Shown here in pieces: positions 661 to 42,890 of a stretch of 64,000 nucleotides of DNA (position 1 is its first letter; every line of letters begins with the position of its first letter). The translations under genes were made by a program, and so were the position numbers. The notes under the pieces are model-generated. The model was not told the origin of the DNA. It did no database searches and saw only the letters and a program-made list of their open reading frames with translations. The DNA is taken from positions 1,098,053 to 1,162,052 of the forward strand of contig JAHFKK010000001.1 in NCBI GenBank assembly GCA_023245335.1. Reading direction: 5' to 3'. This DNA comes from Candidatus Gottesmanbacteria bacterium (GTDB lineage Bacteria > Patescibacteriota > Microgenomatia > UBA10105 > UBA927).

Positions 661-1890
661 ATGATACATGTCCTCGCCCGCAGGATAACACGCGAAATTG
701 ATCATTACCGCGCCCTCCCCACCACAACGCGACTTCTCATCACCTCGTACTTCTACCGGAGTGCGGCCTACCCCCTCATCTCTACCTTCGCGAGCGCCTA
801 TATCTGGCAGGCGAATCATAATCTGACGCTTCTCGTCCTCTACCAAATCGCAGCAATGACACTCTTGCCGATAACCTTCGTGTGTAATAAATGGCTATTG
901 AAACATTTTCCGTTTCTTCATCTCTATGGCGCAGGCGTCATGTTCTCTGGGCTCAGCGCATTGCTGGTGGTATTTTTCCGATCAACGGCACCACTATCAT
1001 ATCTCGTGTATGGATCACTGTACGGTATAGGAAACGGCTTCTATTGGGCAAACAGAAACTATCTCACGCTTCGGCATACGACCGCGGAAATTCGCGGTAC
1101 GTTTACCGGCATAAATATAAGCCTTGCGACCGCAACATCCACCATTATCCCCCTTATCGCAGGTTGGTTTATCGTACTAACGGTAAATAGTCGTATATTC
1201 CCCACGTCCCAAATCGGATACGAATGCCTGGTTGGAGTGGCCTTTATCCTGTTGGTTCTCGCTGGGTGGATTATACGGAACGGATCGTTTGCGCAACCGG
1301 TCGTGGCAGAAACCTCTCGCCGCCCGTTTTCCGCGCTCTGGCAGAAAGCACGACTGCTTTCCATCGCCATAGGCCTGGTTGATGCACCGAGTTATATCCT
1401 CCCCACGGTCCTTATCCTCAAAGTGCTCGGGAACGAAGGTATATTGGGATCGGTGACGGGTGTCTTGTCGCTTATCACCGCCGGTGCGACGTACATCGTC
1501 GGGAGAGTACAACACCGATACCGGTTTCTTCCGACGTTTGTCCTGTTTCTCATCCTGTTTGTTATCGCGGGTGCCCCGCTTATGGCGTCAATTGCCGTCT
1601 GGTCCGTCGCGTGGTATCTCATACTCACGACACTTCTCAATAACCTCATTTGGACGGTAAATGAGCCGATTCTCATGGGTATGCAGGACGACGAAGCGCA
1701 CAATAATCACATAACCCATATGCGCCTCATCATAGATCGGGAAATATTCATTGATATGGGGCGGATACTGTGGTTTGTTATATTTTTACTTCTGGCGCTC
1801 AAAGACCAAACGCTTGCATTATCGGTAACAGGGACGTTAAGCGGAATTCTTGCCCTGATCTTTATCTTCCCGACCGTGCGTCAACACTAA
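661..1890 (+). CDS. Polytopic membrane protein, putative MFS-type transporter
   Basis: 409 aa, about 10-12 hydrophobic helices with Gly-rich helices (YGIGNGFYWANRNY). No diagnostic motif. Sits between nusG and rplK where no gene is normally found. Confidence 0.4.
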   Translation: MIHVLARRITREIDHYRALPTTTRLLITSYFYRSAAYPLISTFASAYIWQANHNLTLLVLYQIAAMTLLPITFVCNKWLLKHFPFLHLYGAGVMFSGLSALLVVFFRSTAPLSYLVYGSLYGIGNGFYWANRNYLTLRHTTAEIRGTFTGINISLATATSTIIPLIAGWFIVLTVNSRIFPTSQIGYECLVGVAFILLVLAGWIIRNGSFAQPVVAETSRRPFSALWQKARLLSIAIGLVDAPSYILPTVLILKVLGNEGILGSVTGVLSLITAGATYIVGRVQHRYRFLPTFVLFLILFVIAGAPLMASIAVWSVAWYLILTTLLNNLIWTVNEPILMGMQDDEAHNNHITHMRLIIDREIFIDMGRILWFVIFLLLALKDQTLALSVTGTLSGILALIFIFPTVRQH

Positions 1891-2171
1891 ATCGTCTTGC
1901 CTATCTCATCAAATAATTCTGCTATTCTTTCTTGGGCATCAACATCACGTAAAACTTGCTCACGGTATTTTGCCATAAGTGATCGCGCCCTCCGTCTATT
2001 TCCTTCAAATCGCGCAGCCGATACTCTATCAAATAGCTGATGTTCTTGTGATAGGCCCCTCTGTATAGATCGTATTTGCCAAGCCACCTCCGGATTGCTA
2101 TCCCGTATACTTGCTTGTTGCTTGTCTATGAACATATCCTCATTATACATCGGAGCTCACCAATAGGAATC

Positions 2172-3347
2172 TTATTGATTCGACTTGATGTAGACGTACA
2201 CGCCGAAGCCAACAGCGCTAAGGATGAGGATAAGAAGTATGATTCCAAAAGGATTCCCGCCGCCACCGCCGACAACCGTAAATTGCTCGGCAGCCTGGGC
2301 CTGTCCGTCAGGTTTGGTCGCGACAACCAAGAGATTTTTGGTACCGGGATTCAATTTTTTCGTGAACTGAAACGACCACTTACCGTTTTTGTCCGCATAG
2401 ACTTCTCCGCCGATACCATCCGGATAGACCGTAATCGTAATTTTGGAATCGGGCTCGGCCGTACCGCTTATCAAAGGAGTCTCATTGGTTTGATGCTTAC
2501 TATCGGTAAATCCGCCAACCGTGAGAAGAAGCGCGCGCAGCGCATTGCCTCCGGGACCGGGCGTCGGCGTCGCAAATAGAAATGATCCGCCGTTACCGTC
2601 ACACAGACACCCCGGCTTATCCGAACAGAGTTTGTTCCGACAGGCGCGAAGGGTCGCAAATATCGTAGTACACCCAAGTCCCAACTGGCAGTCAGAGTCG
2701 GTCACGCAGGATTTACCGCATACGTCGATGAGCGCAGGTATCGGCGTCGGAGTCGGCGTGATAGTCGGTATCGGCGTATTGGTGGGGTACGGATGATAAA
2801 TATACGGTGTTGACGTCGGCCGAGGTGTGCTGGTCGGGTACGGCGTACTTGTGGGATTCGGCGTATTGGTGGGAACCGGGGTATTAGTGGGAACCGGGGT
2901 ATTAGTAGCCCGCGGCGTCGGAGAGGGGCTCGGCGTCGGAGATGTAGGCGCTACACACGGACCCTCGTAGGTATGTCCAGCGCAAGCAGTCATGTCAGTC
3001 GTCCATTTGCCTCCGCCGGAGGGACAACACCAGGTATGCCCTCCGCACAGGCCCACCCGTCCGGTGGTGTCACATTGTTGTTGATCCCCATCCGGCTCGG
3101 CGGGACAATTCGTCACATTATTGATAACCCAAGCATAACCATTATTACATTGGTTACAATTGTCAAAACTACACTTACTCGCCTGCTGACGAAGCTCCGT
3201 GGGTCTCACAGCCGCGACTACCGAAAGGATGATACCGATAAAGAGAAGAACGAGAAAAATAAGCGTTTTCGGATCTGTCCAACGAAACACGCCCATCCGG
3301 GAAGAACGGGATACGCCGCGGGCTGAGCGCTTTTTAAACTTGGCCAT
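2172..3347 (-). CDS. Cell-surface protein: N-terminal signal anchor, Cys-rich modules, Pro/Thr-rich linker, Ig-like domain, C-terminal TM anchor
   Basis: 391 aa. N-terminal TM (LIFLVLLFIGIILSVVAAV); two Cys-rich segments; ~70-aa low-complexity linker (PTSPTPSPSPTP...NTPVPTNTP). C-terminal GGGGGNPFGIILLILILSAVGFGVYVYIKSNQ looks like a hydrophobic anchor plus basic tail. Confidence 0.5.
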   Translation of the reverse strand: MAKFKKRSARGVSRSSRMGVFRWTDPKTLIFLVLLFIGIILSVVAAVRPTELRQQASKCSFDNCNQCNNGYAWVINNVTNCPAEPDGDQQQCDTTGRVGLCGGHTWCCPSGGGKWTTDMTACAGHTYEGPCVAPTSPTPSPSPTPRATNTPVPTNTPVPTNTPNPTSTPYPTSTPRPTSTPYIYHPYPTNTPIPTITPTPTPIPALIDVCGKSCVTDSDCQLGLGCTTIFATLRACRNKLCSDKPGCLCDGNGGSFLFATPTPGPGGNALRALLLTVGGFTDSKHQTNETPLISGTAEPDSKITITVYPDGIGGEVYADKNGKWSFQFTKKLNPGTKNLLVVATKPDGQAQAAEQFTVVGGGGGNPFGIILLILILSAVGFGVYVYIKSNQ

Positions 3348-3627
3348 ATGACCTTCTCATCATCGCCAATTTTTGCTCTCAAATCAAGTGGGAGATACGC
3401 CGCTCTTGTTTCTCATCGTCAATTTTGCTATAGTACCCCTTACCACAGTTCGTCTGTGGGAGAAACGGGAAAGTTTCGAACGTAAAGTACTATTGCTTCA
3501 CAATAGCCTCTTCAGTTTGAACGAATCCCCGATTAAACAAAAAGTGAATAGAAAGTAGTGAGTAGTGTATAGAATGTACATCTTGTTTTTCTATATTACC
3601 GCTTAACTATTTGCTTAATTACTAACT

Positions 3628-4056
3628 ATGCCAGCAAGAAAAGTCAAAACATTACTTAAGTTAAACCTGAAGGCGGGCGAAGCAACAGCAGCGCCTCCCG
3701 TAGGACCGGCACTCGGCCAGCACGGACTCGCCATCATGGAATTCGTCAAAGCCTACAATGAACGCACGGCCAAACTCAAAGGCCAGACGATCCCGGCAGT
3801 CATTACCGTATACGATGACCGCACATTTACCTTTGTCACCAAACTTCCGCCTGTGGCGGCCATGATCAAAAAAATTCTGGCTTTGGAAAAAGGCGGCGGA
3901 AAAGCGGGCCGGGAATCCGTCGGGAAATTGACCAAAGACCAAGTGAATCAGATCGCCAAAGATAAATTAGCGGACCTCAACACAGACGATGTCGCCCAGG
4001 CGGCCAAAGTGATCGCCGGCACGGCACGGTCCATGGGGATCCAGGTAGAGAAATAA
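3628..4056 (+). CDS. rplK: 50S ribosomal protein L11
   Basis: 142 aa. Conserved L11 N-terminal block (KLQ..AG.A...PPVGPALGQ.G..IM.F.K.FN). Confidence 0.95.
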   Translation: MPARKVKTLLKLNLKAGEATAAPPVGPALGQHGLAIMEFVKAYNERTAKLKGQTIPAVITVYDDRTFTFVTKLPPVAAMIKKILALEKGGGKAGRESVGKLTKDQVNQIAKDKLADLNTDDVAQAAKVIAGTARSMGIQVEK

Positions 4057-4057
4057 T

Positions 4058-4918
4058 ATGGGTAAAATCAGACAGGTCACCTTAGGTGACGAGGAATCAG
4101 AAAAAGAAGCACGGCGAAAAGCCGAGGCTCGACGTCAAACCAAAGCCTCCAAAAAGGACAAGGTCGAAGGCGTCGGGCTCAAGGGCGGCGAACGCACGGT
4201 GTTGGTCGAAGGCACAGACATCAAGCCGGAATTCAAAAAACTTATCGATGAAGTGGAATCAGAAGACGGAACGGGTACCAAAAAAGTCGTTAAGAAGAAA
4301 AAAGAGACGAAAGTAAAAGTCCGGAGTAAACGATATCTTGAGGCGGCCGCTCAAGTCGACAAAAATAAGCTCTACAGCCTCAAAGATGCGGTCGGACTGG
4401 TGAAAAAAACGAGCTTAACCAAATTTGACGGCACCATAGAACTGCATGTGAGTCTCAATCCTCTGTCTTTGGGTGAAAAGAAAGATTTCCGTACCGGCGT
4501 ATCTCTCCCCCACGGGACCGGTAAAGAAGTGAAGGTAGTCATAGCGGACGAAAAAATCATCGAGGAAATTACCGCAGGCAAAATTAATTTCGACATATTA
4601 GTCGCGCACCCAAGCATGATGCCGAAGTTGGCTAAAGTTGCCCGCATACTGGGTCCCAAAGGCCTCATGCCCAACCCAAAGACCGGTACCGTGACCCCCG
4701 ACCCGGAAAAGCGTGCGAAGGAACTCTCAAGCGGCCAAGTAAACATCAAAACCGAGCCCGGCAACCCGCTTATACACATGCCCGTCGGTAAAGTCAGCTT
4801 TGAGGACAAAGATATTATCGATAACGTCAAGGCTGTGCTTGAGGCATTGGGCAGTAAAGTCGCCAAAGTCACGCTCTCTGCCACCATGGCCCCCGGGGTA
4901 AAAGTACAGCTCGGATAA
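4058..4918 (+). CDS. rplA: 50S ribosomal protein L1 with ~87-aa Lys/Glu-rich N-terminal extension
   Basis: 286 aa. L1 core aligns from about residue 88 (KRYLEAAAQVDKNKLYSL.. vs E. coli TKRMRVIREKVD..), with GPKGLMPNPK.GTVT and following motifs. Start 1 nt after rplK stop. Confidence 0.9.
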   Translation: MGKIRQVTLGDEESEKEARRKAEARRQTKASKKDKVEGVGLKGGERTVLVEGTDIKPEFKKLIDEVESEDGTGTKKVVKKKKETKVKVRSKRYLEAAAQVDKNKLYSLKDAVGLVKKTSLTKFDGTIELHVSLNPLSLGEKKDFRTGVSLPHGTGKEVKVVIADEKIIEEITAGKINFDILVAHPSMMPKLAKVARILGPKGLMPNPKTGTVTPDPEKRAKELSSGQVNIKTEPGNPLIHMPVGKVSFEDKDIIDNVKAVLEALGSKVAKVTLSATMAPGVKVQLG

Positions 4919-5157: not shown

Positions 5158-5399
5158 AGCGACACGAATAAAAAATGCGGGCTTGTGTCAAAGAACGGTT
5201 TTCTGATATAATAATTTTATCCTAAAGACCGTAGGTTGAGCGTAGCGAAATCCTGAGCCTTGCGAAGGACCGCTATATTCAATAAATCCTACCGAGGGAA
5301 AATTAGTTAATAGTAAGTAGTGAATAGTAATTTTTCTGTTTACTCCTCACTACTCTCTATTTTCTAACTCTCCTCGCTTTAGGCGAGGTTTTTTGTTAT
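5158..5399 (+). promoter_or_regulatory. Putative L10 (rplJL) leader region with terminator-like hairpin immediately upstream of rplJ
   Basis: About 240-nt untranslated gap before rplJ. Hairpin CCTCGC-TTTA-GGCGAGG followed by a T-run at about 5372..5395. Position is analogous to known L10(L12)4-responsive leaders (established for E. coli and B. subtilis). Confidence 0.4.
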
Positions 5400-5927
5400 T
5401 TGGAGGTATATATGCCAACACAGAGGAAGATCGATACGGTAAATAATCTGACGGAAAAACTCGGCAAAGCGAAAGTCGTCGTTCTTGCCGACTACCGGGG
5501 CCTCAAACATAAACAGCTGGAGGAACTTCGAAAAACACTCAAAAAAGACCAGGGGGAATTCATTGTCGCCAAAAATAGGCTCGTCAAACGCGCACTCGGT
5601 GATAAAGCCGCAAGCGTCGAAACCTCCCTTTCCGAATCTACGGCTGTTCTTTTCGCGTATGCCGACGAAGTAGCACCTCTTAAAAACTTATTGAAGTTTT
5701 TCAAAACCGCGGGCTTGGGGAAAACTAAAGTCGGATTCATGGGGAGTACGGTCATGACCGAGGCAGACGTGACGAAACTCGCTTCCCTTCCGACACGGGA
5801 GATACTCCTAGGTAAGCTCGTGGCCCAATTAAACGCTCCGATTCAGGGATTACATCACGGATTACAGTGGAACATAAACAAACTGGTCTGGGTGCTTAGT
5901 TCTATAAAGGAGAAAAAGACAGCATAA
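5400..5927 (+). CDS. rplJ: 50S ribosomal protein L10
   Basis: 175 aa. L10 signature (VVLADYRGL..QL.ELRK.L......VAKN.L...AL). TTG start per ORF track; an ATG at 5412 is alternative. Confidence 0.9.
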   Translation: MEVYMPTQRKIDTVNNLTEKLGKAKVVVLADYRGLKHKQLEELRKTLKKDQGEFIVAKNRLVKRALGDKAASVETSLSESTAVLFAYADEVAPLKNLLKFFKTAGLGKTKVGFMGSTVMTEADVTKLASLPTREILLGKLVAQLNAPIQGLHHGLQWNINKLVWVLSSIKEKKTA

Positions 5928-5937
5928 TACATATCTT

Positions 5938-6012
5938 GCCCTCCTTCGCATAAAGCTACGGAGGGCCTAAGAAACGCTAGACTCATTAACATTCATTACG
6001 CGTTTCTAAGGG
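5938..6012 (+). promoter_or_regulatory. Two consecutive hairpins in rplL 5' UTR (GCCCTCC...GGAGGGC and CCTAAGAAACGC...GCGTTTCTAAGG), the second overlapping the RBS
   Basis: Read directly. First stem is 5938..5966. The second 12-bp stem, 5967..5978 with 6001..6012, includes part of AAGGGAGG just upstream of the rplL start. Confidence 0.35.
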
Positions 6013-6014
6013 AG

Positions 6015-6413
6015 GTGACACAAACAATGGCAAAATTATCGAAAAGCGAAATCATGTCAGCCGTCGAGGAAATGACCGTATTGGAGCTTGCTGACCTCGT
6101 CAAAGCATTAGAAGACAAGTTTGGTGTCACCGCAGCCCCCGTGGCTGTAGCTGGAGCCGCTCCAGCCGCCGCGGACAGTGGTGAACCCAAAGAGGAACAG
6201 ACAGTATGGAACGTCGTACTCGCAAACTCAGGTACGAATAAAATCGGAGTCATTAAGGCAGTCCGAGAAATCGTGCCCACGTTGGGACTCCAAGAAGCGA
6301 AGACTCTCGTTGAATCCGCTCCGAAAGATGTCGTGACAGGAGTGAACAAATCCGCAGCCGAAGAAGCCAAGAAAAAGCTTGAGGCCGCAGGAGCTAAGGT
6401 TGAGCTGAAGTAA
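6015..6413 (+). CDS. rplL: 50S ribosomal protein L7/L12
   Basis: 132 aa. N-terminal dimerisation helix, Ala/Pro hinge, C-terminal domain (GVIKAVRE...[32 protein letters not shown]). Printed numbering suggests the ORF may be 6016..6414; track coordinates are used. Confidence 0.9.
6373..6413 (+). repeat. Direct repeat copy 1 (last 13 codons of rplL plus stop)
   Basis: AAAAAGCTTGAGGCCGCAGGAGCTAAGGTTGAGCTGAAGTAA recurs perfectly about 148 bp downstream. Confidence 0.85.
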
Positions 6414-6436
6414 ATAAAAAAACTTGTGAAGAAGCT

Positions 6437-6510
6437 CCGTGGCAGTTTCCGAATCTTTGAGGAAATACTGCCACGGATCCTATACTAAACCGCCGCAAGG
6501 CGGTTTTAGT
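6437..6510 (+). terminator. Two stem-loops downstream of rplL; the second is GC-rich and T-flanked (AAACCGCC-GCAA-GGCGGTTTT)
   Basis: CCGTGGCAGT...ACTGCCACGG (10-bp stem, 18-nt loop) then AAACCGCCGCAAGGCGGTTTTAGTAT. An A-run upstream and a T-run downstream indicate a possible bidirectional terminator. Confidence 0.45.
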
Positions 6511-6520
6511 ATGGGACAAA

Positions 6521-6561
6521 AAAAGCTTGAGGCCGCAGGAGCTAAGGTTGAGCTGAAGTAA
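6521..6561 (+). repeat. Direct repeat copy 2 (non-coding duplicate of rplL 3' end)
   Basis: Identical 41-42 bp to 6373..6413; located after the rplL terminator hairpins. Confidence 0.85.
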
Positions 6562-6690
6562 CAGTCTTCCGTCATCCCGAGCGAAGTCGAGGGATCCCAT
6601 TGGGATTGCCACGTCACTTCGCTCCTCGCAATGACACTTACAAAAAATCCCGTCCGCCTCTGGCGGAGGGGATTTTTTGTAGCAGTTTGA
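6562..6690. repeat. Small imperfect palindromic intergenic element (GTCATCCCGAGCGAAGTCGAGGGATCC ... GGGATTGCCACGTCACTTCGCTCCTCGCAATGAC) followed by an A/T-flanked hairpin
   Basis: Imperfect inverted halves with a CGAGCGAAG(T)CGAGGGATC core. This resembles the short palindromic repeat units that often yield spurious small ORFs. A second hairpin, AAAATCCCGTCCGCC-TCTG-GCGGAGGGGATTTT, follows. Confidence 0.5.
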
Positions 6691-6723: not shown

Positions 6724-7389
6724 GTGAGCAAGTTTCTCTGGATCTTATTCCTCATGATTGTTCTCGCCGCCCTTAGCGTTATCGGTTATCTAGGGTATAC
6801 CTACAGTGCAAAGTACCTTAGTCCCCCGGCAGCAACGTCTTTTGTCTTCCCGACAAGGAATCCAACGACAATGCCCACCGGACCGCCCAAAAGCACACCA
6901 ACCACCGGACCGCCCAAAACCGTCACCGCCGGTCTTAATCATGCTAGCGGAAGCGCATTCCCCAAATACACCATCCAGGTACCTACAAGCTGGACCGTCG
7001 ATCACAAAAGTACGCCTTCACCTCCTACGGATACACTCACTATCACACAGACTGATTATCAGGTAAAAATTTTCCAGGGAGCTCTGGGTAAAGGCCTACC
7101 ATGCCTCTACCCCGGTGATCCTGATGTATCCGGCTTGAGCTCCCGGTTTACTTCCTATTTCCAGCTCAGCGGACAGGCTGGAATCACGTACCGAGGCGGG
7201 ATAGCAGTCGGAACCACGGGGACGGTAGCGACCCAAAAACTCTACAGCGTATGCATGAAAGACGCAAAAAGCAAATTATACGGCCAGCCCACCATGTTCG
7301 GACAGATTTCCTTAAGTACTCCAATTGCAATCGACACGAATATGCAAAATCAAATGGGTGCCATGATTTCCTCGCTGAAGACACCCTGA
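6724..7389 (+). CDS. Membrane-anchored secreted protein, paralog A (N-terminal TM, Pro/Thr linker, conserved C-terminal domain)
   Basis: 221 aa. TM (FLWILFLMIVLAALSVIGYLGY), PT-rich linker, then a domain shared with the next gene (TVTAGLNH..G..FP.YTI.VP..WTV.H......P.DTLT.T...YQ.KI.Q.A.G...CLYPGDPD). Confidence 0.5.
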   Translation: MSKFLWILFLMIVLAALSVIGYLGYTYSAKYLSPPAATSFVFPTRNPTTMPTGPPKSTPTTGPPKTVTAGLNHASGSAFPKYTIQVPTSWTVDHKSTPSPPTDTLTITQTDYQVKIFQGALGKGLPCLYPGDPDVSGLSSRFTSYFQLSGQAGITYRGGIAVGTTGTVATQKLYSVCMKDAKSKLYGQPTMFGQISLSTPIAIDTNMQNQMGAMISSLKTP

Positions 7390-31344: not shown

Positions 31345-34300
31345 TTATGGCGTCGGACTCGGGGCTGAAGTCGGCGCCGGGCTTGGTGATATGGTCGGCG
31401 CAGGAGAAAGTGTCGGTGTATCTGTTGGCGCAGGAGTTATCGTATCAGTGATGACGGGAGTGGGCGTCACGGTGGGTTGTATCGAACCCGTCGGTACCGG
31501 TGACACTTGCACGCTACCGCCTAGAGGAATACTTGTCGGAGCTGGGACAGACGGGTTGACGGTCGGAGACGGGGTCGGCGCAACCGTCGACGAACCCGCA
31601 ACCGTGCCCGTCGCCTCCTCCTGACCGGAAGTGAATGTCTTCGCGCTGTCAACGGCAATAGCCGTCCAGGAGAACGTGAGGTCTACCGGTGTATCTTTAT
31701 CCAAAAGAATCATGAATCCCTGGGTCGATTGCCCCGTAACCGCCACGTGGACGTTACTCGTAAATACCGTGTTGACGACCGTCTGATGACATTCATCCAG
31801 CGTCGCATCGGGCGCACAAATACCGTCAGTCATATATTGATGATATTTGTCCGTGGAAAGCGCCGGTATGACGATGGTTGCGTTCACAATCGGCGTCTGG
31901 TCATACGCGGACTGGAACGTAATATCCACAAAGCGCTTTCCCTTTTCGATGACCGCATATCCTGCAGCATCCTGGTTGAATTTCACATTTCCGCGGAAGC
32001 TTACTTTGCCGGAATAAATGACGTCTTTCAAATATTCCACCACATCATGGAACCGTACATGCGCCAGAAATTCTACCTGACCTTTAAAGAGTGCTTGTCC
32101 CAGGGAGACCAGCATCTTATCGACGGTGATCCCCTGTCCGAAGTCAGCCAGTTTATCCAGAATTGATTGCTGTACTTGGGCCGTTTCCGTTGCCTGTCCC
32201 GCGAGAAGTCCTGAGTCTGTCGCGATGGTGAGTTCGCTCAACGCATCCGCGGTATGAGCGATCGTGACTTCGCGCGGTTGTTCCAAAAGTGCCGTATCCT
32301 GTTGGTCCCCGAGATAATAGCCGATATTCACGTTCACGAGGAGTTTCGTTTCATCCGCGGGGGCTGCCGGATCATATGCTTCGGCTGCAGTTCCCAATAT
32401 TTTCCCCGGCTTCGTCGCCTTCATCGCAACCCCGGCAACACCGGAAGATGTGATGGGATCACCGATTTTGATCGCTCCGCCGGTACCGTTTACGCGCGTC
32501 TCTACCCGTCCGCTCAATGCGACGGGCCAGGTCATCGAACTCGATGCGCCGATCGTGAGTCCGGGATCAGCAGAGGCGACGCCCAGGAGCTTACGGTCAT
32601 ACGGGATCGCTGACAGCGTCGCTTCGCCGGTCGTATCGGAAATTGCAAGCACTTGCCCGTCGGGTATATCCGCATCTGTGTTTACATAATAATGTTCTGC
32701 GACATCAGCACCCGCGATGGGATCGGGCCGAAGTGATGCAGCCGGCGTCTCTTGGGAACCTCCCTGCTGTACGAGCGGTGAAGCGCCGTTCTGAATCGGA
32801 TCATCCTGAACGAACGCAAACAAATCTACGTTTGCCGTCCACGGGAAACCGTTTGAAACGGCACCGCCCGCGGCACCTACCTGCGCTTGCCCGACGTTTA
32901 TGGCCGGCCCTAAGTTAAATGTAGGAATGGCATTGGCGTTGGTGGCATTACCACAATAGGTCATGCTGATGCCGTCGGACATATTGTTGTCGACAAAAAA
33001 CCGGATATCATTGGTTGCCCTCGCTTCTATCCTTAGAAGGGCAAACGCGTTAGTTTTGATATTTTGGCCGGCACATTGGACCACCTGGTTATTGGATGCC
33101 GTGCCCATACGGACGTTTCCTGCCCATTGCTGACCCAATCCCGTCGCATTGGCGGAATCACCGTTAAAGAACATAATGGCGCCGGAATTTGGCTGCGTCC
33201 AGGGAATCGTATACTGCCATCCCTGGGAATAATTGTTCGCACCGAAGTACATATTTTTGATGGAGGACATTGCGGTAAATCCGGGTGACGGCATGACTTT
33301 CCAGTACATCACCCATTTATTCGCGATATTGAGTATGGCCGCCGTTGCTGCCCCGGTACCACTACCCATATGTAACCGACACTCGCCGCCTTTGTAACCT
33401 GTATCGGTGAGACTCGTACCATTAGAGCTTGTTTGGGTATCCGGTGAAAGTTCCAAAAGCCCCATACTGCCATTCGTTAAAGCTGATCTTGCCTCGTTTC
33501 CAGTGCAGCCGATAGAACCGGAACTCAAACTTCCGAGTGTGAGCGTCCCGCCTTCATCAAATACCCAGCCATACTGATCACCGAACCTGCCGGTAGCGGT
33601 CTGATCTGCTGTTGCTTGCGCTACGTTTCTATTGAAATTGTCCATATAGAAACTTCCGTCGATGTTGATAAATCCGCCTGATTCCGTCACCCCGTATCCT
33701 TCTCCGGTGAAGTATTCTTTGAGTGACGCGAGTGTCGTGCCTGACGCACTTTGATAACTGAGTGCGCTGCCGTCGGCGAGTTGTATGACGGGTGCGGTAT
33801 TCGTGAATTGGATATCTCTGTCGTAACCTGTGCCAATTTTCAGCGCGACCTCTGTCGCGTTTGCCTGCCCGGTAACATTTCCTATGGATATTGCTTCCAG
33901 TGTTCGGCCCGCAGTATTGTCATTTGAAGTGAGGTTTACACGAAGTCCTGCGTTATCAACGGTAGAACTGCCGCCGTTTGCAAAATCTATCTGTAAACCG
34001 TCTACGCCTGCTGTCGCTGCACCCTGACTGGTACCGGTATTGAGGATATTCATCATATCCACAGTGGGTGCAGTAGAGGTTGCCATCGTAACCTGGAATT
34101 GTGTCCCGGTCGTATCCTGAAAAATGATACTGCCATTGGTTCCTGTCATAAGCACGGTTTGATCACCCGCAGATCCCGTCGTGTAGGCTTGTTGCAACGT
34201 CCCGCCCCCACCGCCGCCTGTTCCCGTAGCCCCGGTGGGACCGATAGGACCGGTAGTTCCCTGAAGTCCCGTCGGGCCGGTTGTACCTGTCGGGCCGGTC

Positions 34301-37300
34301 ACTGCCGCCCCGACGTCTCCCGTGCTTCCTGTTGCGCCGGTCGGGCCGTTGGTCTGACCAGTCGGACCAGTCGGACCAGTCGGACCGTTATTACCGGTTG
34401 TACCGGTTACTCCTGTCGGACCGTTTGCTCCGGCACCGCCATTACCTCCGGTTGCACCGGTTGAACCAGTGGGACCGGCATTACCAGTAACGCCTGTTGA
34501 ACCTGTAGGACCGGCATTACCGGTTGCGCCCGTACTTCCCGTTGGCCCGGAAGAACCTTGTGTTCCGGTAGATCCTGTGGAACCGGTTGGTCCGGATGAA
34601 CCTGCAGTCCCGTTAGCTCCGGTAGAACCCGTCGGCCCCGTAGGACCATTATTTCCTGTTGCTCCGGTCGAGCCAGTTGGTCCAGCATTTCCAGTAGTAC
34701 CGGTTGAGCCAGTGGGACCTGAAGTTCCTTGAGTTCCGGTCGCACCGGTTGAGCCGGTAGGACCACTTGACCCTTGAGCTCCTGTTGCTCCGGTAGAACC
34801 CGTCGGCCCCGTAGGACCATTATTTCCTGTTGCTCCGGTCGAGCCCGTTGATCCCGTTGGTCCGTTATTTCCGGTAGACCCGGTGGAACCAGTGGGACCG
34901 TTTGCGCCGTTTGCCCCAGCTCCGCCAGCGGTACCCGTAGCACCTGTTGAGCCGGTTGGACCGCTCGAACCCTGTGTACCTGTAGCCCCGGTCGACCCGG
35001 TGGAACCAGTGGGACCGTTGTTCCCGGTTACACCAGTTGAACCAGTGGGACCGGCATTGCCAGTTGTTCCTGTTGTCCCTGTCGGACCACCTGCGCCTTG
35101 TGTGCCTGTTGCACCCGTCGAGCCGGTGGGGCCGGAAGATCCTTGTGTCCCGGTCGCACCTGTTGAGCCGGTACTACCGCTCGGACCGTTGTTTCCCGTT
35201 GTTCCAGTTGAACCAGTCGGCCCATTATTTCCAGTAGATCCTGTTGAACCAGTTGGGCCGGAACCGCCACCCGCTCCGGTTGCACCGGTACTGCCTGTCG
35301 GTCCTGACGAACCTTGTATTCCCGTCGCACCAGTAGAACCAGTGCTTCCCGTGGGGCCGTTATTTCCTGTTATACCTGTGGATCCGGTCGGACCCGCGTT
35401 TCCTGTGGCTCCTGAGGAACCGGTCGGGCCGGAAGATCCTTGCGTCCCGGTTGCACCGGTAGAACCTGTGGGACCGGAAGATCCCTGTACACCAGTTGCT
35501 CCGGTAGAGCCTGTTGAACCCGTAGGACCATTGTTTCCTGTGGCACCCGTACTCCCGGTGGGGCCGGCGTTACCAGTGGAACCGGTGCTTCCCGTTGGGC
35601 CGGAAGATCCTTGTGTCCCGGTCGCACCCGTACTCCCGGTCGGACCAACATTTCCAGTTATTCCCGTACTTCCTGTCGGACCAACATTTCCTGTTGACCC
35701 AGTTGATCCAGTCGGTCCGGAACCACCAGCTGCTCCGGTAACACCAGTTGAGCCAGTAGGACCGGAAAATCCTTGCGTACCTGTAGCCCCGGTCGATCCG
35801 GTAGATCCTGTGGGACCGGCATTACCCGTGGATCCTGTTGAACCAGTCGGACCGGCATTACCCGTGGATCCTGTTGAACCAGTCGGACCGTTTGATCCTT
35901 GTGTTCCGGTTGAACCAGTACTACCAGTGGGCCCGGATGAGCCTTGAGTACCTGTTGCACCTGTCGATCCCGTATTACCCGTCGGACCAGCATTTCCTGT
36001 TGCACCCGTTGAACCGGTGGGGCCGTTATTTCCTGTTGACCCCGTACTCCCGGTCGGACCTGAGCTTCCGCCTGCACCTGTCGCACCTGTTGATCCGGTA
36101 GGCCCGGATGAGCCTTGAGTACCTGTTGCTCCGGTTGATCCTGTGCTACCAGTTGGTCCATTGTTTCCCGTTGTACCAGTTGACCCCGTGGGTCCATTGT
36201 TTCCCGTTGCTCCCGTACTTCCGGTTGGACCGGAACTTCCTCCCGTGCCGGTAGATCCTGTTGATCCCGTTGGGCCAGACGAACCTTGAGTTCCTGTTGC
36301 TCCTGTGGAACCGGTGGGGCCACCGTTACCTGTTGTTCCTGTTGATCCAGTCGGACCGTTGGATCCTTGTGTTCCCGTTGAACCGGTTGAGCCAGTCGGA
36401 CCACTTGACCCTTGGGCGCCCGTCGCACCGGTTGAGCCTGTGCTACCAGTTGGCCCGGCGTTTCCTGTGGCCCCTGTTGAACCCGTTGGGCCGGTCGGAC
36501 CATTGTTTCCTGTTGTTCCCGTAGAACCAGTCGGACCTGCATTTCCGGTCGTACCAGTTGATCCGGTGGGACCGCTTGAACCTTGAACTCCTGTCGTTCC
36601 AGTTGAACCCGTTGATCCAGTGGGCCCGTTATTTCCAGTTGAACCCGTACTTCCTGTAGGACCGGCATTACCGGTAGTACCTGTTGAACCCGTGGGACCA
36701 GATCCGCCACCAGCACCTGTCGCACCAGTTGATCCTGTAGGACCGGAAGAACCTTGGGTACCAGTTGCGCCCGTTGATCCCGTAGAACCTGTCGGGCCAT
36801 TTATTCCAGTAGTTCCAGTGGAACCGGTCGGTCCGTTATTGCCTGTTGTTCCTGTTGATCCAGTCGGACCGTTGGATCCTTGTGTTCCCGTTGACCCGGT
36901 ACTACCAGTCGGACCACTTGACCCTTGGGCGCCCGTCGCACCGGTTGAGCCGGTAGAACCTGTCGGGCCTACATTTCCAGTCGCTCCGGTTGACCCCGTG
37001 GGCCCATTATTTCCCGTTGCACCAGTTGATCCGGTGGGACCGGATGAACCTTGTGTTCCGGTAGCTCCTGTGGAACCGGTGGGACCCGATGAACCTTGTG
37101 TTCCTGTTGATCCTGTAGAACCGGTTGTACCGGTGGGACCATTGTTTCCTGTTGGTCCAGTTGAGCCAGTAGGACCGGCATTACCGGTAGAACCTGTGGA
37201 ACCCGTGGGGCCAGATCCGCCACCAGCACCTGTCGCACCCGTTGATCCCGTTGGGCCGGAAGATCCCTGTGTCCCTGTTGCACCCGTTGATCCCGTAGAA

Positions 37301-40300
37301 CCTGTGGGGCCTGCATTTCCTGTTGTCCCCGTAGAACCAGTCGGACCGGCGTTTCCCGTTGATCCCGTACTTCCGGTTGGACCGGAAGAACCTTGAGTTC
37401 CCGTTGACCCAGTACTACCCGTCGGACCACTTGACCCTTGGGCGCCCGTCGCTCCGGTTGATCCTGTAGAACCTGTGGGGCCTGCATTTCCTGTAGCTCC
37501 TGTTGATCCCGTTGGCCCATTATTTCCGGTAGCTCCGGTTGATCCGCTGGGACCATTTACCCCAGCTCCACCGGCTGTTCCGGTAGCTCCGGTTGATCCC
37601 GTTGGGCCAGACGAACCTTGCGTTCCTGTTGCACCCGTTGATCCCGTAGAACCTGTCGGGCCATTGTTTCCTGTTGACCCGGTGGAACCGGTCGGGCCAT
37701 TGTTTCCGGTTGCGCCCGTTACACCTGTTGGGCCACCTGCACCTTGTGTCCCTGTTACACCTGTGGAACCGGTGGGACCGGAAGATCCCTGTGTCCCTGT
37801 TGCACCGGTACTTCCGGTTGTACCGGTGGGACCATTGTTTCCCGTTACACCAGTAGACCCCGTGGGTCCATTGTTTCCTGTAGAACCTGTGGAACCAGTT
37901 GCTCCGTTTGCTCCGGCATTCCCGGCTGTTCCTGTCGCACCAGTTGATCCCGTTGGGCCAGACGAACCTTGCGTTCCTGTTGCACCCGTGGAACCGGTAC
38001 TTCCGGTGGGACCAACGTTTCCTGTTGTTCCAGTTGAACCAGTCGGACCATTGTTTCCAGTTGATCCCGTACTTCCGGTTGGACCGGAAGATCCTTGCGT
38101 CCCTGTTGCTCCTGTGGAACCGGTGGGACCCGATGAACCTTGCGTTCCTGTTGCACCCGTTGATCCCGTAGAACCTGTGGGGCCTGCATTTCCTGTTGTC
38201 CCTGTTGAGCCGGTAGGACCATTGTTGCCGGTTACTCCTGTGCTTCCCGTCGGACCATTGGATCCTTGTGTTCCCGTTGACCCGGTACTACCCGTCGGAC
38301 CACTTGACCCTTGGGCGCCCGTTGCACCTGTGGGACCAGCATTTCCTGTTGTTCCAGTTGAGCCGGTCGGACCATTGTTGCCAGTTGCGCCAGTACTTCC
38401 GGTTGGACCGGAAGATCCTTGCGTCCCTGTTGCTCCTGTGGAACCGGTGGGACCCGATGAACCTTGCGTTCCTGTTGCACCCGTGGAACCGGTTGGACCG
38501 ACGTTACCGGTTATTCCTGTTGATCCTGTCGGACCGTTATTACCTGTCGTTCCTGTAGATCCTGTCGGACCGGAAAAACCTTGAGCTCCTGTTGCTCCAG
38601 TTGATCCCGTTGATCCGGTCGGACCATTGTTTCCTGTTGAACCAGAACTTCCTGTAGGACCGGCATTACCGGTAGTACCTGTTGAACCCGTGGGGCCGGA
38701 TCCACCACCAGCACCTGTCGCGCCAGTTGAACCAGTAGGACCAGAAGATCCTTGGGTACCCGTTGCTCCTGTGGAACCAGTTGTTCCGGTCGGACCAGCG
38801 TTTCCGGTAGCTCCGGTAGAACCGGTCGGACCAGCGTTTCCAGTTGTTCCAGTTGAGCCTGTTGCTCCATTGGCTCCATTTGCGCCGGCAGTCCCGGCAG
38901 TTCCCGTAGCGCCGGTGGAACCGGTGGGACCAGATGAACCTTGAATTCCTGTTGATCCCGTACTTCCTGTCGGACCGTTTGTACCGGTAGTTCCAGTAGA
39001 ACCGGTCGGTCCTGCATTTCCGCTCGGGCCTGTTGCTCCCGTCGGGCCGGCTGCACCGGCTGCACCACCCTGTGATCCGGTCGGTCCTGTTGCCCCAGTA
39101 GGACCACCTTCGCCGGTAACCCCTGTTGATCCAGTACTTCCAGTCGCGCCCGTGGAACCACTCGTCCCTACTCCACCGGTTGCACCGGTGGAACCGGTCG
39201 GACCGCTTACTCCTTGAATACCTGTTGCTCCTGTAGAACCGGTTGGACCGGCATTGCCGGTAGATCCCGTACTACCAGTTGGACCTGAGGAACCTGCAGA
39301 TCCAGTTGCGCCACTTGACCCAGTCGGACCATTATTTCCTGTAGATCCGGTAGAACCGGTCGGACCCGCATTCCCTGTAGGCCCTGTCGATCCGGTTGGT
39401 CCATTCCCACCATTTGCACCTGTTGCACCTGTACTACCAGTTGGACCTGAGGAACCTGCAGATCCAGTTGCGCCACTTGACCCAGTCGGACCGGCGATAC
39501 CTGTTATACCTGTGGCTCCGGTAGGACCACTCGTCCCTATTCCACCGGTTGCACCGGTAGAACCGGTCGGACCGCCGATTCCGGTGGCGCCCGTAACACC
39601 GGTTGATCCTGTAGGTCCAACTATACCTGTCGCTCCTGTTGAACCGGTAGGTCCGTTTGACCCGCCTCCGCCACCCCCGCTACCGGTACCGGTAGCTCCG
39701 GTGGGACCTATGGGACCGAGTTCTCCGGTAGATCCCGCTGTCCCGACACCAGTTGCCCCGGTTGCCCCGTCTACACCAATAGTGCCGTTCGTTCCGTTCG
39801 TCCCATTAGAGCCATTTGCTCCCGCATCTCCTTTCTCTCCCTGGGGGCCACTGACTCCTGTAGCTCCTGTTGCGCCAGTTTCCCCAATACCTCCGAATGT
39901 GCCGCCGGAATAAAGCGTAGCGCTGCCGGTTTGCAATCCTGTGTTGTTCTGCTGTTGAGTCGTATTGAAGTTGTTGACTGTGGTAAATTGCGGGCTAAGT
40001 TGTTGTGTCGCGGTGGGTGAAGAAGTAACTGATGTAGAACCTATCCTAATGATACCTTGTGCATCAAAACGTTGCACGGTCAATCCAATTGTTGGCAAGT
40101 TTGGTGCCAATATCTGAGGTGATGATCCAAAAGAACCCGCATCTGTCGAAACTCCTAATACGCTCGTGTCGTTATTCGATACGACAACCATCTTGAGTGT
40201 TTCACGGCTTATGAGTGTTGAGACGGCATCCAGAGATTGTAAGGTCGGCTGAATAGAAAGCGACAGCATGGCGTTATTGGCACTTCTATCTCCCGTAATG

Positions 40301-40905
40301 CGGCTGTGTTGAATATCAGTTATAGCCGAAAAATTACTAATGAGTTTGTCGCCTGCTACCGTCGCATCTGTATAATGAACCGGAAGTATGGAACCATCCG
40401 GTAATGTTATACCGGCCACGAGATGCTCTAGAATCTTTGCCTGATTTCCTGCCCCTTGTTTTGAGATAAAAAGCGGTATCACACCGTTCGCATCTTCAGA
40501 CACGGTCCCGCTGTCGCCGTTTGCATACTGGAGAGTAATATCACCGATAAACTTGCCATTCTGAAGTAGTGCTTCATGAACAAACGCATACGAATAAGAG
40601 CCATCCGGTAGCTGGACAATAAGGAGAAGCGGTCCGTTCCAATCGCTTTTCATGAGAAGATCACTCGTAAGTTGTGGTATTTCCGGGGTCGTCGGCGGTT
40701 GGGGAGACGTAGTAGTCGTATTTTTCGCTACGTTCAAACCGCGGATGGCCGAATATGTGCCCCACGCCAAAGTTGTCAGAATAGCCCCAACGAGGAAAAT
40801 AAGAAAGTACTGGACAAACCCAGCCTCAGATTGTGCATGACGACTGTTAATATGTGCACTCCATACAGAATGACAAAATCCGCTTGAGGCGGATCTTTGG
40901 TGCAT
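31345..40905 (-). CDS. Giant (~3,190 aa) N-terminally anchored surface protein with ~1,900-residue Thr-rich collagen-like (G-X-Y) repeat region, ~950-aa C-terminal globular region and Pro/Thr/Ser-rich tail
   Basis: Single uninterrupted minus-strand ORF (track 31345..41091; start set at the Met just downstream of the upstream gene stop). N-terminal TM ([21 protein letters not shown]); ~300-aa N domain. Then continuous GXY triplets dominated by [13 protein letters not shown] / GTQGSSG units with no Pro at Y positions. A non-repetitive C-terminal region follows, ending [22 protein letters not shown]...[12 protein letters not shown]. Confidence 0.85.
34200..39900 (-). repeat. Collagen-like coding repeat array (about 5.7 kb of degenerate 9-nt/45-nt/171-nt periodic GGx-CCx-ACx units)
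   Basis: Visible as GGACC/GTTGGACC/CCGGT periodicity on the + strand. Protein-level superunit of about 57 aa ([57 protein letters not shown]). Generates long spurious ORFs in other frames and on the opposite strand. Confidence 0.9.
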
Positions 40906-40928
40906 AGCGGGACGCCATTTTTTGTCTT

Positions 40929-42890
40929 TCACGGCGATCCCCCTCCCACAACCTTTGGACGTACATACAAATAATAAAAAGCACTCGTACCAAGGGTAAG
41001 AACTACAAGTATTATGGCAAAGAGCGAAATGACCGAGGCTGTATTGATCATCACTACCGAACCAATCGGTATGCGCAAACTCAAACTCCAACCTAAATTG
41101 GGCACGATATTATACCCATCTACTCCCATGTGATCATTAAAAACTATGCTTTCGCTGGCATGAGGAGTCGTATCATTCAAATACAAACGCATTGGATCAT
41201 CCTTCGGAAGCTCTTTACCGACCATCGCCATATTGCTACTTATGACGTATTGCCCTTTACGATCAACTATCGTGAACCCTTCGCCTCTCGTTTGATCTGC
41301 TATCTGCTGCACCTCCAAATTAAGTTGATTTATGTCTATAGATCCAGCCAAAACGCCCACAAAATCATTTTTGGTGGAAATAAGCGGCACGGAGACCGTA
41401 ACTACTTGTCGGTGGGAGTTATCAGCAAGGGCCTCAAAAACACCGGATACGTATGGCTTTCTCGTATTCCGGGCAGCGATAAAATAATCACGGAATGATA
41501 AATTGGATTGATCAAACGTCCCATACGGGTACAAGGCGACTCCTTTTCCTTCCGCATCCAGTATGATGATACGGCGAAGATAAGAATGGCTTTCATACAG
41601 CACTTTTGCGTACTTATCGATTGTCGTAAAATCTTTCTTCCCCACGGCAACAACAAGGTCTTGATTTACAGCAGCCGTCGCAAGGACTGCCTGTGCCGTA
41701 TCAAATGCATCCTGCACGAGCCTTTGGGCAATGATCATTTTATTATGCAATTCGACCTGCTTTTGATTCCATAGCGTCTGCTGAAGTTCATACACCGCGA
41801 ATATGGAAGCGAGTATGACGACGCTCACTAAGCCCAAAAAGATATGAAGAATTGTTTTATCACGCCGCGAATCATGCCCACGGATCAACATAGACCATAA
41901 CGGCACAACGAGGCTGAAAAATCCCAAAACGACAAAGTACATAGCCCTGCTCCAATACTCCATGTTGGCGTACCAAAGGGCCGCCACGAAACAAAAACAC
42001 ATAGTTACCCAGGCGCCAATTCGAAACCATACGGAACCCGTCCGATAACCGCGCCAAAAAAGGAACAAATTGGTTCCCGCGACACCGGTGAGCAAGAGAG
42101 CCACTGCATAATTGGGAAGGGAAAATAAGCTGGTGAACATCTGCACATGCCCGACATTGGCGCCCAAAAATAACAGCGTCACTACACCTGTTAAAAGAAG
42201 GTCGAGATACAAAAGATAGGAAATAATACCGTCAACATCAAATATCGCGTTATATAAAACGACAATTCCCATGGTGCCGTATAGGATAGCGCCATCAAAA
42301 TCCTGAACATTTATAAAAGGCATCACGCTGCCAAACGCAAGAAGTGCAAGTAATCCAAAAAATACACTCCGCCACTTCCGCATTCCCTGAAATATGTTAA
42401 TCGTGACAATGCCGGCGCCTATGGCTATGAGGGCAACGCGTGCAGTAATAAGATATGCCGACAACGAGGCGTCACCTGCGGTGTTTGTTAGATTGAACAA
42501 AAACAAACTCGCCCCGGATACGATAGCGCCTAGTCCTACCAACCAATCAAAAATATTTGGTGCGGCTACCAGATTCCAGTCATGCTTTTTAGTCCATCGG
42601 GTAATATGAGAAATTAATGCTGATTGGGATATTTCATTGCCAGCAGACACAGGCGGGGTGCTTGGAGCAACTACGGTTTGGACTTTTCCTGCTGTTTCTA
42701 CCGGCCGCTTTGAGAGGTGTAATATACGAGCAAGTTCTTCTTCCGGGATACGGAATCTCCCCTTCCCCAAACGGACTCCTCTGATGCGCTTTTCTTTGAG
42801 GAACGCATAGATGCTATTGGTAGAATAGCCTAATATATCCGCGACTTCTTTGACAGTATAGTTCTTCGGCATGCTCGGGCAGCTTGTCAT
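40929..42890 (-). CDS. Membrane-bound one-component regulator: N-terminal HTH (excisionase/MerR-like) + polytopic TM region + extracytoplasmic Cache domain + C-terminal TM
   Basis: 653 aa. N-terminus [43 protein letters not shown] (HTH_17-like); about 8 TM helices; a Cache-type sensor block ([58 protein letters not shown]); a final TM. No kinase or other output domain. Confidence 0.6.

Follow-up and report, generated by a model that had tools for sequence, protein, structure and literature searches.

We analysed a stretch of 64,000 nucleotides (nt) from Candidatus Gottesmanbacteria bacterium (contig JAHFKK010000001.1, positions 1,098,053 to 1,162,052), hereafter the window or, as a locus, WIN; related loci carry L-numbers. 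In this genome rplL, the gene for ribosomal protein L7/L12, is followed by two hairpins (hp1 and hp2) and by a displaced copy of its own last 13 codons and stop codon, and modules of this build recur behind rplL in related bacteria of the candidate phyla radiation (CPR). We tentatively favour the view that the module is a small, non-autonomous hairpin cassette that spreads horizontally and, lodged within the terminus of rplL, restores the end of that gene. This view is ranked first, with decoding of the displaced copy by ribosomes as its main rival. The feature is older and more widespread than was assumed in an earlier note on this DNA; it is an undescribed, miniature form of something known, the insertion at rplL that regenerates the gene end.

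The end of rplL (copy 1, c1) and the displaced copy (copy 2, c2) form an exact direct repeat with a spacing of 148 (Table 1). The earlier note had reported a perfect duplication of 41 bp; the exact repeat was borne out, and its length is 42 nt. A repeat of this kind was obtained in 0/100 shuffles, and the 64-kb window contains neither a third copy nor, elsewhere, further copies of hp1 and hp2. Every other local direct repeat of the window falls inside one highly repetitive gene, described below. The two strong stem-loops that had been noticed between the copies were confirmed: the 106 nt fold at -50.8 kcal/mol, versus -22 kcal/mol for shuffled sequences (z = -8.3). There is no T-run after hp1. 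The inner stem of hp2 (GCCGC-AAG-GCGG, then TTTT) gave a terminator-like match at 6492-6504, weaker than that at 6639-6681. The end of the spacer agrees with each genome's own rplL, reading GAAGAAGC in the window and GAGGAAGC in L164, the closest relative.

Table 1. Features at the rplL terminus of the window, and transposase genes near rplL in related loci
Feature	Position	Strand	Description
rplL (L7/L12)	6027-6413	+	128 aa, stop TAA; Pfam PF16320 (Ribosomal_L12_N) and PF00542 (Ribosomal_L12)
Copy 1 (c1)	6372-6413	+	functional last 13 rplL codons and TAA; exact 42-nt repeat
Spacer	6414-6435	+	22 nt; its purine-rich end, GAAGAAGC (6428-6435), resembles the rplL codons immediately before c1
Hairpin hp1	6436-6477	+	11-bp stem, 20-nt loop; arms 6436-6446/6467-6477; -24.4 kcal/mol, z = -7.0
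Hairpin hp2	6478-6516	+	TCC...GGA outer stem; arms 6478-6489/6505-6516; -26.2 kcal/mol, z = -7.1
Copy 2 (c2)	6520-6561	+	displaced copy of last 13 codons and stop, not an open reading frame; exact 42-nt repeat
Inverted-repeat element, MITE-like	6571-6635	.	65 nt; GTCAT...ATGAC, ends GTCATCCCGAGCGAAG...CGCAATGAC
Bidirectional intrinsic terminator	6639-6681	.	A6-stem-loop-T6; -31.8 kcal/mol, z = -8.4
Membrane-anchored protein gene	6724-7389	+	conserved, marks the original flank; no Pfam family; homologues after rplL in L164, L019, L023, L021
IS200-like Y1 transposase genes	L026 ~1025 and 3229-4041; L107 2657-3343; L130 ~2562		near rplL; motif MPNHFHLL

An assembly artefact, either a repeat-induced loop or concatenated strain variants, could be suspected, since the 42-nt repeat is longer than common k-mer sizes. 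In the Logan assembly SRR14366791 (L001), a contig with 100% identity over 5339-6413 ends exactly where c1 ends; a protein identical to the L12 of the window is present in this assembly and on a 1.218-Mb NCBI/ENA contig. The contigs of L095 (1190-1262) and L105 (5844-5882) likewise break inside the hp1 module just past rplL. However, the junction between hp2 and c2 requires spanning reads, and the same architecture, with diverged copies that are unable to collapse, was found in more than 15 assemblies from different assemblers (SPAdes, MEGAHIT, IDBA, Logan and long-read metagenome-assembled genomes). We therefore attach almost no probability to an artefact. The module is a recurrent assembly breakpoint, and it is therefore probably more frequent than these data show.

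Scans of GTDB genomes and JGI metagenomes with L12 yielded 160 loci, the best matches being CPR Gottesmanbacteria and Microgenomates. With hp1 as a probe on 170 related loci, a homologous module was found in at least 10 other species of these groups, each time directly after rplL. An nhmmer profile of hp1 matched directly after rplL in 11 species, with 1.1 Mb searched, including the rest of the window. The sole other match in the same sense was weak and lay about 200 nt further downstream in L018; this second hp1-like hairpin (2023-2058, GTGACAGT...GAGTCCTCGAG...ACTGTCAC) is located past the terminator and has no adjoining gene-end copy. On the minus strand, the profile matched the hairpin that interrupts c2 in L101, and also matched in L011. 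The hp1 stem had changes on both sides in 5/9 pairs and 89% of cells paired; none of 500 shuffles equalled this, and slid controls gave 23-55%. By this comparison, hp1 is a structure conserved with compensatory changes. The structured RNA product considered in the earlier note gained no support from Rfam, which gave only sub-threshold noise for the window and 11 related loci, and nothing at 6414-6690 or in the relatives' inserts.

A second copy of the C-terminal L12 codons and stop was found 90-220 nt past rplL, behind hairpin-rich sequence, in the window and in L018, L021, L026, L076 (two copies), L082, L086, L090, L091, L101, L109, L011, L004, L096, L110, L164 and L166. The copies are of several types. 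A 14-codon copy follows hp1 and hp2 in the window, L018, L021, L086, L090, L096, L101, L164 and L166, copies of 6-7 codons follow other hairpins in L011, L076, L082 and L109, and copies of 5 and 21 codons occur in L004, L091 and L026. The right boundary of the copy is always the stop codon, and the left boundary is set by the type of hairpin (12, 18, 21-24, 42-47 or 64 nt). The distance from the stop to hp1 is 17-23 nt in all species, and c2 begins with a near-invariant AAAAAGAAA immediately past the hairpin. We also scanned 3342 stop-to-stop open reading frames (ORFs) of at least 80 codons, from the window and the loci fetched to that point, for a repeat of the last five amino acids and stop within 400 nt. 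Only rplL has such a repeat, the two other matches being spurious frames (one in the repetitive gene at 31-41 kb); a general property of gene ends was ruled out on this basis. The glycine codon located seven before the stop in rplL is GGG in 6/10 module-bearing versus 7/56 other species (a count uncorrected for phylogeny), and that of the displaced copies is GGA, GGC or GGT.

In L076 and L166 the modules form tandem arrays. That of L166 (1890-2230) consists of hp1-hp2, a 14-codon copy, two hairpins, GAGCTCAAATAA, two further hairpins and GAGCTCAAATAA again, so that 4-codon units recur behind small hairpins; gene callers place a spurious ORF of 85 aa over it. Across 10 aligned contigs of this organism (including L167-L169 and L173-L178), from at least six independent samples, the array has one single-nucleotide polymorphism (SNP), in one sample, and two more SNP-bearing contigs differ solely within rplL. 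In L082, sub-threshold matches to the type III hammerhead ribozyme were found on the minus strand at 2227-2296 and 3598-3668 (33 and 32 bits; gathering score 48.5), about 1.3 kb apart and with a minus-strand ORF (2476-3219) between them.

The closest relative, L164 (Logan SRR22387960), has an L12 that is 90% identical to that of the window, and its rplL shows 84% nucleotide identity (63% at third codon positions). The layout of its module is the same, with a 22-nt spacer, hp1, hp2 and c2. A single difference separates the two loci over 6467-6518; divergence reaches about 35-50% in the spacer and hp1 loop (about 50% in the spacer), and no alignment is possible for the flank past c2. The c1 and c2 of L164 differ by nine synonymous codons and one nonsynonymous codon. 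The arrangement therefore predates the window genome. The recent, one-off insertion inferred earlier does not hold, given a homologous module in L164 and at least nine further species; the comparison of downstream regions in relatives, which the note itself had proposed, revealed a shared arrangement that weakens this idea. The perfect identity of c1 and c2 in the window is instead due to recent homogenisation by gene conversion or to very recent acquisition from a conspecific, since in L164 the hairpins are the same and yet the two copies have diverged strongly.

Evidence on mobility was obtained from several loci. L170 is an empty site (TAA|CCGAGGTT...terminator), and L004, with an rplL 90% identical to that of L170, reads TAA|93-nt insert|18-nt copy|CCGAGGTT; L005 has a different insert in the same position. 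L170 and L004 form the one clean pair of empty and filled sites, a pair between species. In L101 a hairpin is nested within c2, and L011 is a deletion derivative of the L101 form. The similarity of hp1 disagrees with host relatedness: hp1 identity is 92% for L018-L090 and L018-L086, the hosts being 65-69% identical, and 85% for L021-L101 (hosts 62%), and it is only 66% between the sister hosts L018 and L021 (78%). Clustering by rplL similarity showed module-bearing and module-free species to be interleaved.

We propose that the 148-bp segment locally represents a family of non-coding two-hairpin cassettes, about 80-130 nt in length, that reside specifically at the rplL terminus of Gottesmanbacteria and Microgenomates. 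The cassette would sit within the last 14 codons, with a complete end (c1) before the hairpins and the former, or other, end (c2) displaced downstream; rplL would stay intact because the complete end precedes the hairpins. The topology is that of the attL/attR duplication produced by integrators into gene 3' ends, in miniature and without a recombinase of its own. Cassettes of this family would pass between species, and further hairpins would land in or behind the displaced end, giving rise to arrays. Movement may be provided by a recombinase or transposase acting in trans, or by transformation and recombination with rplL and c2 as arms. An empty allele here would read rplL joined directly to CAGTCTTCC.

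The c2 segments evolve in a coding-like manner. As c2 was found by protein similarity, the set was redefined by hp1 alone to control for detection bias. In this set, c2 is intact in 9/9 species with sequence, eight of which entered the codon counts. Differences between c1 and c2 are distributed over the three codon positions as 10/3/55, and they correspond to 53 synonymous versus 6 nonsynonymous codon differences. A neutral c2 predicts about 70% nonsynonymous differences (p ~1e-21), and this expectation for a neutral c2 facing a constrained c1 is independent of the time since duplication or conversion. Between species, variable sites by codon position were 4/3/14 for c2 and 3/1/13 for c1. In the sequences compared, lysine and glutamate codons vary only between A and G in the third position, alanine, glycine, valine and leucine codons use all four bases, and the stop codon is always kept. 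In L090 the third-position identity between c1 and c2 is 21% and the peptides are identical; in L166, 11/14 third positions differ, with no amino-acid change. The distal parts of c2 in L011 and L101, both with the hairpin type B, differ by six changes, all synonymous. In the cassette reading, each end would have been a real gene end until recently, and this would account for a divergence confined to synonymous sites.

The same data bear on the idea of a local duplication, which would have arisen through replication slippage or template switching at the terminator hairpins, or as a long target-site duplication when a palindromic element inserted, and would have been followed by neutral decay with occasional conversion; c2 would then never have had a function or served as a gene end. 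The window (no differences) and L004 (one difference) look duplicated in place, and patchy conversion is visible in L086 and L096. Lineage-specific synonymous states are common to both L004 copies. Their single difference is of a nonsynonymous type; this youngest case looks neutral, which we count in favour of the cassette. Direct repeats of IS1634 range from 17 bp to several hundred bp; such variable-length repeats were reportedly attributed to this insertion sequence by Vilei and colleagues in 1999, to judge from their title, and we count this in favour of a local origin. However, the codon counts given above contradict neutral decay whatever the time elapsed, the third positions of L090 and L166 are saturated with no amino-acid change, and the mismatch between hp1 and host relatedness would be left unexplained. 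Replication slippage, one of the origins envisaged in the earlier note, was thus rejected, with its neutral decay, for this type of module by the codon-position statistics. A local duplication is very improbable overall and, for the module type of the window, it is already largely refuted.

The c2 segment, 42 nt in length, not an ORF and apparently untranslatable, has followed the genetic code over long spans of evolution, a constraint left unexplained by the standard models for duplication, for gene conversion and for integration. Several other sources of the signal were discarded. An independent small ORF ending in c2 was ruled out by the lack of an in-frame start in five loci (L021, L096, L011, L109 and L004) and by inconsistent frames through the hairpins. 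Readthrough or frameshifting from rplL into c2 was ruled out by the spacing of c2 from rplL (93-221 nt), which covers all residues modulo 3, and by in-frame stops. An antisense ORF causing the 3-nt periodicity was also ruled out. The antisense frame with third positions that coincide with those of c2 stays open over just 11 codons in L109 and over 20 in L096, and its conservation does not extend beyond c2.

The main rival explanation is that the module acts in cis as an element of the rplL 3' region and is inherited vertically, and that ribosomes decode c2, without a start codon and after the stop, by hopping, shunting across the hairpins or post-termination sliding and resumption, that is, by programmed recoding. 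The genetic-code signature of c2, the permanent retention of its stop and its variation between species, which resembles that of c1, would be accounted for in this way. Moreover, modules that appear to be orthologous (WIN/L164 and L011/L101) have kept the constraint, conservation is strong in hp1 and hp2 beside a saturated spacer, the distance from the stop to hp1 and the AAAAAGAAA opening of c2 are nearly constant, and the L166 array is fixed across samples. We retain this alternative because any flow of information at the DNA level that imposed such selection should homogenise the copies, and the copies stay diverged (third-position identity of 0.21 in L090). Nevertheless, we regard it as unlikely. 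There is no in-frame start in the five loci named above and the frame relative to rplL varies, hp1 is too distant from the stop to be in the ribosome at termination, and a hop from the last lysine codon would yield a duplicated L12 tail and leave the conservation of the glycine-alanine codons in short copies unexplained. Moreover, a hairpin interrupts c2 in L101, the young L004 copy has a nonsynonymous-type change, and we know of no bacterial chromosomal precedent. The more specific proposal that c2 is an expressed, startless coding segment reached by a hop or shunt over the two hairpins, the product being an L7/L12 with a duplicated C-terminal tail or a free peptide, is somewhat less likely still.

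Programmed bypassing, as in T4 gene 60 and the mitochondrial byp elements of Magnusiomyces, is a close known analogue of such decoding. It shares with the rplL module a hairpin-rich gap between coding-like segments, a stop at the potential take-off site and lysine codons at potential take-off and landing sites (c2 starts with lysine in the 14-codon type); the gap of T4 gene 60 is itself part of a mobile element (bioRxiv 10.1101/2022.08.31.505936). In the rplL module, however, the upstream ORF is complete by itself, the gap spans 100-180 nt, and the hairpin begins 17-23 nt past the stop rather than at the take-off codon. Short copies, moreover, do not open with a landing codon that matches.

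Several results weigh against the horizontally spreading cassette. WIN and L164 have the same module subtype, their spacers have diverged like neutral sites and c2 is still intact in L164, a pattern that suggests vertical inheritance; together with L011/L101, it suggests that c2 is constrained where it now lies and is not a young fossil. In the organism of L166, 12/12 contigs from at least six samples were filled and had an invariant array; an empty allele, which the look-up by protein identity would have returned, was not encountered. The starts of c1 and c2 do not have a clear identical core. Pfam analysis of 114 ORFs located downstream of rplL in relatives gave no integrase or resolvase among its 25 commonest families, a list that single integrases could escape. 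Three scans of IMG/VR phages detected no attP corresponding to the rplL end and no hp1, giving only two chance matches. Finally, to our knowledge, a cassette of about 150 bp has no known way to move between species. Among the same 114 ORFs, two matched Y1_Tnp (PF01797), and the motif MPNHFHLL placed IS200-like genes, which we take to be RAYT-like, in three loci (Table 1); this motif was not found in the window. In L026, Y1 genes lie on both sides of an rplL region carrying the 21-codon gene-end copy.

The closest parallel to a cassette at this site is provided by streptococci, in which ICEs (integrative and conjugative elements) as well as IMEs (integrative and mobilizable elements) integrate at the rplL 3' end, the direct repeats measuring 12-54 bp, and cis-mobilizable elements (CIMEs), decayed elements that keep attL and attR, accrete in tandem (PMC4701971, PMC5704250). 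The gene and the gene end are the same, the repeats correspond to the 3' end of the gene up to the stop, the gene is left intact, and tandem accretion occurs at the gene-end copy. Here, the attL/attR-type repeat of 42 nt ends at TAA, as do the repeats of at least 15 relatives. The earlier note had read the repeat as the regeneration of a gene terminus with the involvement of small palindromic elements, and this view was upheld, a repeat ending at the stop being a known pattern of 3'-end integration in streptococcal rplL (PMC4701971). In contrast to the streptococcal elements, the insert here is 106 nt of non-coding sequence without a site-specific recombinase; the modules consist of about 100 nt of hairpins, with no integrase, cargo or detectable autonomous parent, the hosts belong to the CPR, and the repeats have often diverged strongly at synonymous sites and lack a clear identical core.

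A related possibility is that a large element (prophage, ICE or IME) once occupied an attB site in rplL and lost all but its att-proximal arms by internal deletion, the module being the CIME-like scar. The 3' ends of rplL are known attB sites, and CIMEs are such decayed elements. In L109, a third copy of the rplL end (GTVELK*) is found 3.1 kb downstream (3767-3880), accompanied by about 90 nt that also occur after copy 2; it brackets three minus-strand genes, one of them HEXXH metalloprotease-like, and looks like a larger insertion at the same site. However, 11 species have the same two-hairpin build, of similar size and with compensatory changes, and independent deletions would produce heterogeneous scars. 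No locus has a full-length, integrase-bearing element at the site, and IMG/VR yielded no candidate. We consider a large-element scar improbable.

Other systems resemble the module in part. Phage 21 and e14 integrate in icd of Escherichia coli and supply an alternative 3' end of the gene. As here, the end is borne by the element, the differences are mainly synonymous, and a pseudo-end, the original one, remains downstream; unlike here, the elements are kilobase-scale prophages with integrases, and no conservation between species is known for the displaced icd end. Repetitive extragenic palindromes (REP/REPIN-RAYT systems) and miniature inverted-repeat transposable elements (MITEs) are likewise short, non-coding hairpins near gene ends and terminators, in both orientations, and Y1 genes lie by the rplL region in L026. 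Unlike these families, hp1 and hp2 occur only after rplL in the 1.1 Mb searched (except for the weak L018 match), and insertion of a REP or MITE does not restore a stretch of 12-64 nt at the end of a gene. An assignment of hp1/hp2 to either was rejected, the hairpins not being dispersed and the duplicated segments, 12-64 nt and ending at the stop, not being a target-site duplication of fixed length.

The template repeat of diversity-generating retroelements is also an untranslated copy of a gene 3' end with coding-like conservation, and it differs in that the copy here is 42 nt and the gene is rplL. A template of this kind was ruled out, as the copies of the window are identical and the mismatches of L090 involve all bases rather than adenine specifically; no reverse transcriptase was noticed, although no search aimed at one was made. 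In TIGR arrays, a stem encloses two 14-nt intervals of the boxC-spacer-boxD type and a tas gene is adjacent (bioRxiv 10.64898/2026.09.09.750476). A guide-RNA array of this type was ruled out, the 20-nt loop of hp1 and the shorter loop of hp2 being too small for two such intervals; no tas-like gene was identified, by inspection only. A tmRNA- or tRNA-like element was also discarded. Rfam and ARAGORN were negative at the rplL 3' site, and ARAGORN gave only tRNA-Arg and tRNA-Pro, at 57.9-58.5 kb.

The palindromic element of about 130 bp described in the earlier note proved to be two things, a 65-nt inverted-repeat element and a separate bidirectional terminator (Table 1). The palindrome region (6562-6640) folds at -27.8 kcal/mol (z = -3.4). 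The 65-nt element is present in a single copy in the window and is missing at this site in L164, and homologues were found at other intergenic positions in L009, L003, L092, L089, L020, L004, L027, L124, L166, L095 and L013. With copies in at least 10 related loci, it behaves as a separate element of a dispersed, MITE-like family. The terminator has the G+C-rich stem-loop and T-run of an intrinsic terminator, and terminators of the AAAAAATCCC...GGGATTTTTT type are also located downstream of rplL in relatives.

The earlier note had also linked the loss of the rplL-rpoB adjacency to the insertion. The two are unrelated, as the same gene (MDKFFS...) follows in relatives with and without the module. 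There is no ORF of the size of rpoB anywhere in the window, and its absence is, judging from the relatives, a property of the whole clade. The gene order of the window is nusG (52-654), a major facilitator superfamily (MFS) transporter gene, a minus-strand gene for an immunoglobulin (Ig)-domain protein, rplK, rplA, rplJ and rplL; the usual secE-nusG-rplKAJL cluster is thus broken at 661-3347 by the MFS transporter and minus-strand Ig-domain genes between nusG and rplK. The rplA product (4058-4918, 286 aa) has its Pfam L1 domain match split in two, with the best part at residues 160-277, and seems to contain a sizeable extra segment. Upstream of rplJ (5204-5403, plus strand), a sub-threshold match to the Rfam L10 leader was found (40.2 bits, versus a gathering score of 44), and comparable matches in L090 and L018 suggest a divergent CPR version of this leader. 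The repetitive gene mentioned above is a minus-strand ORF (31345-41091, 3248 aa) with unit periods that are multiples of 9 nt (36, 162, 171, 324 and 351 nt); the plus strand is rich in GGNCCN, and the protein looks collagen-like or Gly-X-Y rich.

If c2 were decoded, the module would represent a new recoding mechanism involving the ribosomal stalk protein, and it would be a chromosomal, conserved bacterial case of programmed translational bypassing or of decoding of a 3' untranslated region. If, on the other hand, the horizontally spreading cassette that we tentatively favour is the correct interpretation, the end of a universal and highly expressed ribosomal gene would serve as a safe landing site for undescribed, recombinase-less hairpin cassettes in CPR bacteria. 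The stacked displaced ends would then constitute a small fossil record of gene termini and a marker of horizontal exchange in uncultured organisms.

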